Source of the DNA: a virus
Taxonomy: Duplodnaviria > Heunggongvirae > Uroviricota > Caudoviricetes
IMG/VR virus record: IMGVR_UViG_2778261504_000024
Direction: 5' to 3' (one strand)
Length of the DNA stretch: 6,371 bases
Shown: one piece after another, positions 3,641-4,177 of the stretch
Position numbering within the stretch: position 1 is the stretch's first letter
Layout: each line of letters begins with the position of its first letter
Program-made: the position numbers and the translations under genes
The notes under the pieces: generated by a model
Database searches by the model: none
The model's input: the letters and a program-made list of their open reading frames with translations, nothing else
What the model was told of the DNA's origin: nothing

Positions 3641-3946
3641 ATGGCGACTACCAACAAAAACGCTAAATCACAATTGACCACCGTCCGAGTTCCCCACGAT
3701 GTTATGGAGGGCATGGAATCCGTAAAACTGGACGGCGAAAGCAACGCCGGATTCATAGTAACCGCCATGCGCGGTGAGATCGCCCGCCGCCAGGCAGAAG
3801 GAAGCGGAGAAAATCCCCTGGTTTCTTCGCTCGATGCACTGGCGCAGGTGGAAAAAATCGGAGTCAAAGCAGCCGAGGAGATCGAGCAACTCATCACCGT
3901 CGCGCGTGAAGAACTCCAGCGTCGCAAGGCCAAAGAGCAGGAGTGA
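3641..3946 (+). CDS. Small DNA-binding-like protein, 101 aa, possible ribbon-helix-helix (Arc/CopG-like) regulator
   Basis: Strong RBS GAGGAG 8 nt upstream of ATG 3641. N-terminal pattern TTVRVPHDVMEGMESVKLDGESNAGFIVTAMRGEIARRQ fits beta-strand/helix/helix of RHH proteins. Charged, coiled-coil-like C-terminus. Sits directly downstream of the operator repeats. Confidence 0.6.
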   Translation: MATTNKNAKSQLTTVRVPHDVMEGMESVKLDGESNAGFIVTAMRGEIARRQAEGSGENPLVSSLDALAQVEKIGVKAAEEIEQLITVAREELQRRKAKEQE

Positions 3947-4003
3947 CCATCACCAGCGCCGTGGTGTAAGGTATTACGGCGCATTGCTATGCAGGACAAC
4001 ACA

Positions 4004-4177
4004 ATGACCGATAAAGAATTTACCAAAACATTATCACCGGCACGGAAAAGACGGCGCAGAAAGATAGAGCATGAATCAGAAAGATTCGCGCCATGTGCTT
4101 TTGCCCTTGAGCAACTCCTTAAAGAGTACAGGGAAAAGCGCTCATTGCAGGTATGGCAACGAACTGAACCAGACTGA
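4004..4177 (+). CDS. Hypothetical small basic protein, 57 aa (alternative start ATG 3989 gives 62 aa)
   Basis: ATG 4004 preceded by AGGA (3993-3996) with 7-nt spacing. Contains an RKRRRRK basic run. Followed by intrinsic terminators. No recognisable family. Confidence 0.4.
   Translation: MTDKEFTKTLSPARKRRRRKIEHESERFAPCAFALEQLLKEYREKRSLQVWQRTEPD

Follow-up and report, generated by a model that had tools for sequence, protein, structure and literature searches.

The P22 immI region encodes Mnt and Arc, small ribbon-helix-helix (RHH) repressors whose operators overlap back-to-back promoters, one of which is their own. In P4, the immunity factor is the CI RNA, which lies inside eta and on the same strand, and repressors of the Stl/Rpr kind are relieved when they bind a helper protein. 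Within SaPIs and Gram-positive phage-inducible chromosomal islands (PICIs), stl/rpr stands divergently to the excision-replication-packaging operon, beside the integration module and co-oriented with int (PMC6092414). For P4, translation of eta from an upstream regulated promoter is described as preventing termination, which yields immunity-insensitive transcription (PMC10111431, in its summary of Forti et al. 1999). As to Gram-negative PICIs, the regulatory model published so far comprises the activator AlpA only, which by itself is enough for induction, and a global repressor is described as unclear (PMC6092414).

Herein, we describe Y101/S57, a small, putatively regulatory cassette located between alpA and the replication genes in many enterobacterial PICIs. 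So far, Y101 is the strongest candidate for a repressor in PICIs, which were thought to lack one. The PICI literature that we searched makes no mention of this cassette, though the prototype element EcCICFT073 carries it.

The island and its two plus-strand genes

The window (the whole stretch of 6,371 nucleotides, IMG/VR record IMGVR_UViG_2778261504_000024) is the integrase-proximal half, or left arm, of a Gram-negative PICI and stops before the late region. Its genes (Table 1) show the order and the size class given for PICIs by Fillol-Salom 2018, namely int, alpA, a pri/rep gene followed by ori, and SSB. An E. coli relative, 85% identical over window positions 3400-4450, sits at tRNA-Pro beside yejM; its further genes encode the major capsid, head decoration and small terminase (terS) proteins, and the island measures ~10 kb. 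The Icd-like protein matched a single phage record, an 'induced prophage' of 16.5 kb with the looks of a capsid-forming PICI. According to the ORF list, Y101 and S57 are the sole plus-strand genes of the window and their unit converges on alpA, both in agreement with a preliminary description made from the letters of this DNA.

Table 1. Features of the window, in order of position.
Feature	Position	Strand	Remarks
SSB gene	1-423	-	
83-aa ORF		-	
Iteron-like repeats	662-875		
AAA_25/RepA-type helicase gene	873-2288	-	
DUF4222 gene		-	
157-aa ORF and 57-aa ORF		-	
Icd/Kil-like gene, 68 aa	3238..3444	-	NF033153, 70 bits; first gene of the leftward operon
'Eta-like' ORF, 393 codons	3238..4419	-	GTG at 4419; start 5 nt past the alpA stop
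Leader hairpin	3480..3514	-	CCCCG...CGGGG, then C-rich tract; conserved; downstream of the leftward promoter, ahead of the icd-like start
Operator array	3521..3638		Putative; 9-bp sites at ~22-bp spacing
Site A	3521-3529		TGTATTTCA
Site B	3543-3551		TGTGTTTCA
Site C	3565-3573		Inverted
Site D	3588-3596		TGTATTTCT
Site E	3610-3618		Inverted
Site F	3630-3638		Weak
Leftward promoter, icd/kil-replication operon	3551..3579	-	Sigma-70-like, TTGACG-17-TAACAT (-35 at 3579-3574, -10 at 3556-3551)
-10-like hexamer TATACT	3605..3610	+	Putative cassette promoter; TATACT/TATAAT/TATATT conserved in most loci
Y101, 101-aa YlcI/YnfO-family protein	3641..3946	+	RHH domain ~9-52, short linker, long helix 59-100
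Hairpin between Y101 and S57	3956..3982	+	GCGCCGTGGTG...TATTACGGCGC; dG -17.7 kcal/mol, no U-tract after
S57, 57-aa basic protein	4004..4177	+	SPARKRRRRK tail and one helix; phrog_21027, E 6e-14
First intrinsic terminator past S57	4244..4272	+	GGCGACC...GGTCGCC, then TTTGTTTTG
Second, stronger terminator	4365..4397	+	Just before the alpA stop codon; minus-strand reading without U-tract
alpA, PICI activator	4424-4630	-	Pfam Phage_AlpA, E 4.5e-8; convergent with the cassette
76-aa ORF		-	
P4-type integrase gene	5130-6371	-	

Among 5426 complete E. coli genomes, 1768 match the DNA of window positions 3400-4450 and 1526 contain S57 DNA, often unannotated. In CFT073 (NC_004431.1), int and alpA are followed by two genes of the opposite strand, for a 57-aa hypothetical protein and a 59-aa YlcI/YnfO protein, and these by icd-like, DUF4222, primase, SSB, PerC and capsid genes; the two cassette genes bear late-added locus tags (C_RS30800 for the 57-aa protein, C_RS30120 for the 59-aa one). 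S57 and the 57-aa protein share 96% identity, and the 59-aa protein corresponds to Y101 minus residues ~52-93, with ...GEIKRRQ joined to RRKAKEQE. In an O157:H7 genome, the PGAP annotation of the same region is an antisense 'Icd-like pseudogene'.

Neither protein had been placed in a nameable family beforehand, and this did not hold. Y101 scored 68.4 bits (cutoff 30) against NCBIfam NF041551 (YlcI/YnfO, DUF3950), its residues 9-50 aligning with profile positions 1-42, and it also matched phrog_6522; S57 belongs to phrog_21027. The source annotations of Y101 homologues agree with the YlcI/YnfO assignment. The label 'uncharacterised' was a fair one, as our literature search gave no functional study of YlcI/YnfO/DUF3950. 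We collected 235 homologues of Y101, from Enterobacterales only, and an exhaustive HMMER scan gave just 39 clusters at 50% identity, which split into ~100-aa forms and ~61-aa forms composed of the N-terminal domain only. A tblastn search of Y101 against 50,697 phage records gave no match, and PADLOC returned nothing for Y101, S57 or the adjacent cargo.

In the AF2 model of Y101 (pLDDT 78), helices span residues 19-28, 35-54 and 59-100. The order of elements is that of an RHH protein: an SQLTTVRVP segment, two helices and a conserved G-E-S turn agreeing with the G-x-S/T/N pattern. As modelled, the N-terminal half of Y101 is compatible with an RHH fold, and the RHH-like N-terminus proposed from the bare sequence fits the predicted helix order, the strand and the turn. 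Matches of Y101 homologues to PSK_trans_fac (25/34) were sub-threshold, with E 0.017 for the window protein, 1e-3 at best and all scores under the gathering score. PDB sequence searches with the Y101 protein and its profile gave no RHH match, and a Foldseek search with the model gave no matches. A Hef helix-hairpin-helix-like PDB match to residues 45-86 was marginal (E 0.01), and we do not rely on it. Speculatively, the long C-terminal helix may serve cooperative oligomerisation or the sensing of an inducer.

S57 has a narrower distribution, its 35 protein clusters coming from E. coli/Shigella only. The conservation of this small ORF was looked at directly: it is intact in all 52 loci that carry it, its ATG always 60 nt past the Y101 stop, and it is absent from others. 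An alternative ATG at 3989 would give 62 aa, and the homologues begin at 4004. Even a copy at 53% identity retains the motif F-x-PC-x-FALEQFLK. The dN/dS of S57 is 0.17-0.56, with the sense frame slightly better than the antisense one, and such values discriminate weakly for both S57 and Y101 since the antisense ORF has its wobble positions at the same nucleotides. AF2 predicts a disordered arginine-rich N-terminus and one helix (pLDDT 74). Searches of Pfam, NCBIfam and PADLOC gave no match for S57, be it to a toxin or to a defence family.

S57 is missing beside Y101 from each of the 10 non-E. coli loci and from about 25 of 80 (about a third) of the E. coli loci sampled; there, the slot of the second gene is either vacant or taken by a 75-aa protein or a 178-aa membrane protein. 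Where S57 is present, its partner is either the long Y101 or, in EcCICFT073, the short form. We regard S57 as probably genuine yet accessory, dispensable to the many islands without it, and its putative role is probably that of a modulator binding nucleic acid or a partner. We dropped the idea that S57 binds the C-terminal helix of Y101, as it also accompanies the short form without that helix.

Of the strong ribosome-binding sites ascribed to both genes, that of Y101 stands (GAGGAG, 8 nt 5' of the ATG), but we grade that of S57 as moderate because only AGGA is found 9 nt upstream. The dedicated terminators were seen again as the two plus-strand structures downstream of S57 listed in Table 1. 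The GCGCC/GGCGC stem of the hairpin between the two genes is kept in most loci sampled, including some without S57.

Operator-like sites and the strand motif of Y101

The cassette had been credited with its own operator-controlled promoter. Operator-like sites are indeed there, in a larger array than described, but a canonical plus-strand promoter was not called by the consensus scan, and for this reason we treat the cassette promoter as putative. With at most one mismatch, TGTGTTTCA occurs 8 times in the window versus 2.15 expected (0 of 200 shuffles reach 8), and four of these copies fall in 3521-3618. With two weaker copies, they make up the regular series of sites A to F, at a spacing of ~22 nt. 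Site C lies inside the spacer of the leftward promoter and site B on its -10/start region. On the plus-strand side, the -10-like hexamer, which has no good -35, directly adjoins site E, and site D occupies the spacer upstream of it. The leftward -35 (GTCAAG on the plus strand) is kept in nearly all loci. Between E. coli, Xenorhabdus, Photorhabdus and Serratia, the spacers differ and sites B-E are near-invariant; in loci of the TGTGTTTCA type, so are the -35, the -10 and the RBS.

A wider comparison drew on 80 IMG/VR loci, 11 loci of reference genomes and further annotated ones of E. coli. In nearly every locus whose sequence reaches the neighbouring genes, alpA/int and the icd-like/replication genes flank a Y101 homologue that is encoded on the other strand. 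The intergenic architecture is common to nearly all of them as well; what changes is the repeated site, and it changes with the beta-strand motif of Y101. Proteins with SQLTTVR or SQLFTVR go with TGTGTTTCA, SQMTTIR with GTGAGATAC, SQSLTAR with GTGTAAGAC, SQMKNIR or SQVKNVR with GGTGTGTAC-like sites, SRQISIR with GTGTGATTT, SQQINAR with TGGGATTCA and SQALKAR, the motif of EcCICFT073, with GGTGTGGCCCA. This pairing is one-to-one throughout the 93 loci, which have 36 distinct upstream sequences among them, and the co-variation involves strand residues 12-15 of Y101.

The other proteins of the islands vary freely. Within one operator type, identity to the window proteins ranges over 31-100% for AlpA, 50-100% for the Icd-like protein, 22-100% for Int and 50-100% for RepA. 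Conversely, loci L001 and L064 have AlpA 97% and Int 99-100% identical to those of the window, and their Y101 motifs and operators differ from it. Since the sites co-vary with the Y101 motif and the other proteins do not follow, we read Y101 as a putative repressor that acts both on its own gene and on the icd/kil-replication operon. The operator adjoins the 5' end of the Y101 gene, so part of the co-variation may be hitch-hiking within one recombination block. Nevertheless, the concerted replacement of all site copies in a locus is what a change of specificity in a binding protein would produce. Two islands of one Xenorhabdus genome have near-identical specificities, which does not agree with strict heteroimmunity.

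Overall, we consider it fairly likely, judging by these sequence comparisons, that Y101 acts as a repressor for quiescence, or 'immunity', on its own promoter and on the leftward icd/kil-replication operon; this candidate occurs in at least seven operator specificities. The regulator or immunity switch suggested in the preliminary description gains support from the RHH-type fold, from the operator array lying over two divergent promoters and from the one-to-one co-variation of operator and motif. In such a scenario, Y101 dimers would sit on five or six 9-bp sites, two helical turns apart, and each of the two back-to-back promoters would carry one site within its spacer and a second on its start region. 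Because the sites occupy the spacer and the start of both promoters, bound Y101 would shut the leftward operon (icd/kil-DUF4222-RepA helicase-SSB(-capsid)) and limit its own synthesis. S57 would be co-transcribed with the repressor.

The long minus-strand frame

It is also important to note where the cassette lies, a point absent from the preliminary description: it is placed antisense inside the 3238..4419 ORF. This eta-like ORF runs antisense through S57, Y101, the operators and the leader hairpin and is in frame with the Icd/Kil-like gene. Among 70 distinct loci, the frame is open over 200-819 codons in 67, covering all operator types and genera, and the two remaining minus frames are open over just 2-35 codons; the other three loci are without the full open frame. 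Where the plus strand carries the 178-aa cargo gene, the eta-like frame stops short of alpA. One locus has two tandem cassettes nested within an 805-codon frame.

Given the amino-acid sequences of Y101 and S57, there is nothing remarkable in an antisense frame that stays open through both genes (P 0.43-0.86), so the case for a frame that is kept open rests on the non-coding stretches. In those of the window, the chance of an open frame is P 0.013 and 0.025. Moreover, the 150 nt of promoter/operator DNA have no in-frame stop in seven sequence-divergent operator types (P 0.018-0.057 each). Upstream of its Kil/Icd part, that is, over its N-terminal 300 residues, the eta-like product matches no family, and it looks like typical antisense filler. 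In this locus, a long reading frame is maintained opposite two genes and a promoter region, a clean example from nature of such an arrangement.

As the frame is kept open in 67 of 70 loci, like eta/kil of P4, an AlpA-driven readthrough that bypasses the repressor suggests itself. Modelled on PLL/vis/eta of P4, induction would begin with helper-triggered AlpA and lead to transcription from its own promoter. Ribosomes would then continue from alpA into the eta-like frame, translating antisense over S57, Y101 and the operators; this translation would keep Rho from terminating, and the transcripts would collide with repressor transcription. The outcome would be replication genes expressed in a repressor-insensitive manner.

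It is tempting to extend this to Gram-negative PICIs at large, and we do so tentatively, rating the extension as possible yet rather doubtful. These islands would have an RHH master repressor encoded, along with a small arginine-rich partner, antisense in an alpA-coupled frame, with activator and repressor forming a head-on bistable switch. AlpA-driven transcription and translation would silence the repressor by convergent transcription and, by keeping Rho off, bypass it. Joined to this head-on switch, and equally tentative, is the idea that the passage of ribosomes would be the sole selected property of the long frame.

Competing readings and comparison with known systems

The same observations can be read in other ways. 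Y101 might merely autoregulate a 'moron'-type cassette that expresses S57 or other cargo (serving, e.g., exclusion or helper modulation) and have no hold on the replication operon. A second-gene slot as variable as this one would suit such a role, as would the placement of sites D, E and F over the promoter and RBS of the cassette itself and the existence of short YlcI/YnfO proteins as isolated counter-oriented genes in lambdoid prophages, e.g., DLP12. However, sites B and C, on the spacer and the -10 of the leftward promoter, are conserved as well as D and E, and Y101 is kept in islands without any second gene (L014, L006, L011), which makes this reading unlikely in our view. A different thought is that Y101 tunes replication dosage or copy number after induction, in the manner of CopG, ParG or omega, and does not silence the island. 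Typically, it is in plasmid copy control and partition that RHH regulators (CopG, omega) bind arrays of short repeats, Y101 lies upstream of the replication module, and AlpA alone suffices for induction. The mechanism overlaps with that of the repressor we favour and differs in timing alone; the convergence with alpA and the allelic specificity types resemble immunity regions, and we deem pure copy control improbable.

The preliminary description also offered an antitoxin with a small effector, or an anti-phage module. As to a type II pair with Y101 as the RHH antitoxin and S57 as the toxin, co-occurrence is not obligate, given the non-E. coli islands and the roughly one third of E. coli loci in which Y101 stands without S57. 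Besides, S57 pairs equally with the short form that is without the C-terminal domain; it falls into no toxin or defence family, and its predicted structure is a single helix with a disordered tail; and the two genes do not overlap, being separated by the 57-nt gap with its hairpin. A toxin-antitoxin pair is thus highly improbable. The anti-phage suggestion fares no better, as PADLOC gives S57 no defence-family match and S57 amounts to a disordered basic tail and one helix. One might finally take the plus-strand ORFs for by-products of a true minus-strand gene, the long Bro-network/Eta-like ORF, considering that its frame is open in most loci, that PGAP sometimes annotates it (as an Icd-like pseudogene) and that, with coinciding wobble positions, dN/dS cannot tell the frames apart. 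Against this stand the members of the Y101 family found in unrelated contexts, the confident RHH-compatible model and conserved RBS of Y101, the higher pS and lower pN of its frame relative to the antisense one in every pair tested, and the N-terminal 300 residues of the minus ORF, which have no family match; we give this last possibility hardly any credence.

PICIs are satellites of medical relevance, widespread in E. coli, and such islands move virulence and defence genes. Y101 with its matched operator arrays offers a concrete candidate for their repressor, encoded by a gene often unannotated or mis-annotated. If the repressor role is true, it would be the first function assigned to the YlcI/YnfO (DUF3950) family. 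The family members of E. coli K-12, YlcI (DLP12) and YnfO (Qin), differ from Y101 in their size of 60-80 aa, without the C-terminal helix domain; like the protein of EcCICFT073, these short forms represent the Y101 N-terminal domain plus a basic tail. Unlike the Y101 gene, K-12 ylcI is not in a satellite regulatory region, being a counter-oriented small gene beside the terminase gene nohD in the lambdoid prophage DLP12. BLASTP gave no pairwise alignment between Y101 and K-12 YlcI, the two being linked through the family HMM alone.

The likeness to P4 lies in an alpA/vis homologue, in a long ORF abutting or overlapping its stop and in an in-frame Kil/Icd-like gene heading the replication operon. 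The P4 ORF (8168..8812) overlaps the end of vis and has 214 codons, compared with 393 in the window and up to 805, with two nested cassettes, elsewhere. Against NF033153, the C-terminus of the P4 eta ORF scores 73 bits and the Icd-like proteins here 66-70 bits, and phrog_1743 is common to both. These family profiles make the Icd-like gene a homologue of P4 Kil, which forms the C-terminal part of eta; the link runs through family HMMs alone, as BLASTP of the Icd-like protein versus P4 eta gave no alignment. An Rfam search of the whole window on both strands at E<=1 found no family; unlike in P4, no immunity RNA of the C4/IsrK type was detected. We therefore propose that the CI RNA has been replaced here by a protein repressor cassette on the opposite strand, and that the long frame would stay open to let transcripts begun at alpA be translated through this cassette.

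Mnt carries a C-terminal helical oligomerisation extension, to which the long helix of Y101 may be likened; PDB sequence and profile searches detected no sequence relationship of Y101 to Mnt/Arc. Y101 has 5-6 sites at 22-bp spacing, whereas Mnt/Arc have a single operator; its putative target is a replication operon headed by an icd/kil-like gene and theirs is the antirepressor; and, in contrast to theirs, its gene lies antisense inside another reading frame. As with Stl/Rpr, Y101 is divergent from the operon, and its allelic diversity would set which elements respond to what. Y101 differs from Stl/Rpr in being an RHH protein oriented against int and alpA; the Stl/Rpr proteins are much larger, and we know of no detectable relationship between them and Y101. 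Overall, the cassette is akin to known kinds and would join RHH repressor-operator immunity with the nested-gene logic of P4 eta/kil.

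Y101 and the plus-strand cassette

The C-terminal domain of Y101, the 101-aa YlcI/YnfO-family protein and candidate RHH repressor, carries an invariant L..L..E.IG motif at residues 60–86 (window ~3818–3898), a segment wholly missing from the short-form members of the family. The profile match of this domain to the helix-hairpin-helix domain of Hef was marginal (E 0.01), and the AF2 model presents it as a straight helix. In one IMG/VR record (L016, UViG_2778261085_000011, 1461–3878), two tandem cassettes, each pairing the RHH gene with that of S57, the 57-aa basic protein, differ in their alleles; both are antisense within a single 805-codon ORF starting 5 nt after alpA. 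Y101 and alpA are separated by a cargo slot that varies from locus to locus; its occupants are listed in the table.

Features of the window and of the cargo slot in comparison loci
Feature	Location	Strand	Context
Direct and inverted iteron-like repeats (TCCCCACTTT, TTTTACTACCCACTTTTT)	window 662–875		next to the RepA-type helicase gene, on its downstream side
GC hairpin (CCCCG...CGGGG), then C-rich unstructured tract	window 3480–3514	minus-strand RNA	between leftward promoter and icd-like start
Imperfect palindrome, 42 bp (AAAAACAGTACCCACCGTTTT / AAAACGGTATCCACTGTTTTT)	window 4695–4736		upstream of alpA
76-aa ORF	window 4801–5031		between int and alpA
178-aa membrane protein	L022/L065 3651–4193	+	cargo slot
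75-aa protein, starting at the S57 start position	L092 3364–3591	+	cargo slot
310-aa protein, family unknown, Xenorhabdus/Photorhabdus	L004 2054–2986	-	cargo slot
Bro-N and AntA proteins	L024 3640–4218; L020 3571–4419	-	cargo slot

Flanking elements

The palindrome upstream of alpA is a candidate operator, either for AlpA autoactivation or for the helper-phage signal. The neighbouring 76-aa ORF gave no family match, and it is 92–100% conserved among islands with the same integrase. On the replication side, the iteron-like repeats are probably the replication origin of the island. Inside the 157-aa gene (2775–3248), a C10 run at window ~3015–3024 (G10 on the coding strand) codes for Gly-Gly-Gly; such a slippage-prone homopolymer could be an off-switch of this gene or a sequencing error.

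Database annotation and the leftward leader

In E. coli O157:H7 LSU61 (L096, 15843–16436) and in several matches to the S57 DNA, the cassette region is annotated in RefSeq as an antisense ‘Icd-like pseudogene’, or S57 is left unannotated. The PHROG label ‘transcriptional repressor’ on Icd-like families appears to descend from an obsolete P4 ‘cI protein’ annotation. The 16.5-kb ‘Escherichia phage vB_KppS-Ant’ (LR881103.1), deposited as an ‘induced prophage’, combines integrase, primase, capsid, portal and terminase genes with an Icd-like match, and looks like a capsid-forming PICI filed under phage.

Ahead of the Kil/Icd-like 68-aa gene, the first of the leftward operon, the conserved leader GC hairpin keeps its position in L001–L011. 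Together with the C-rich tract, it might play a part like that of P4 timm, as an element for Rho entry or for termination.
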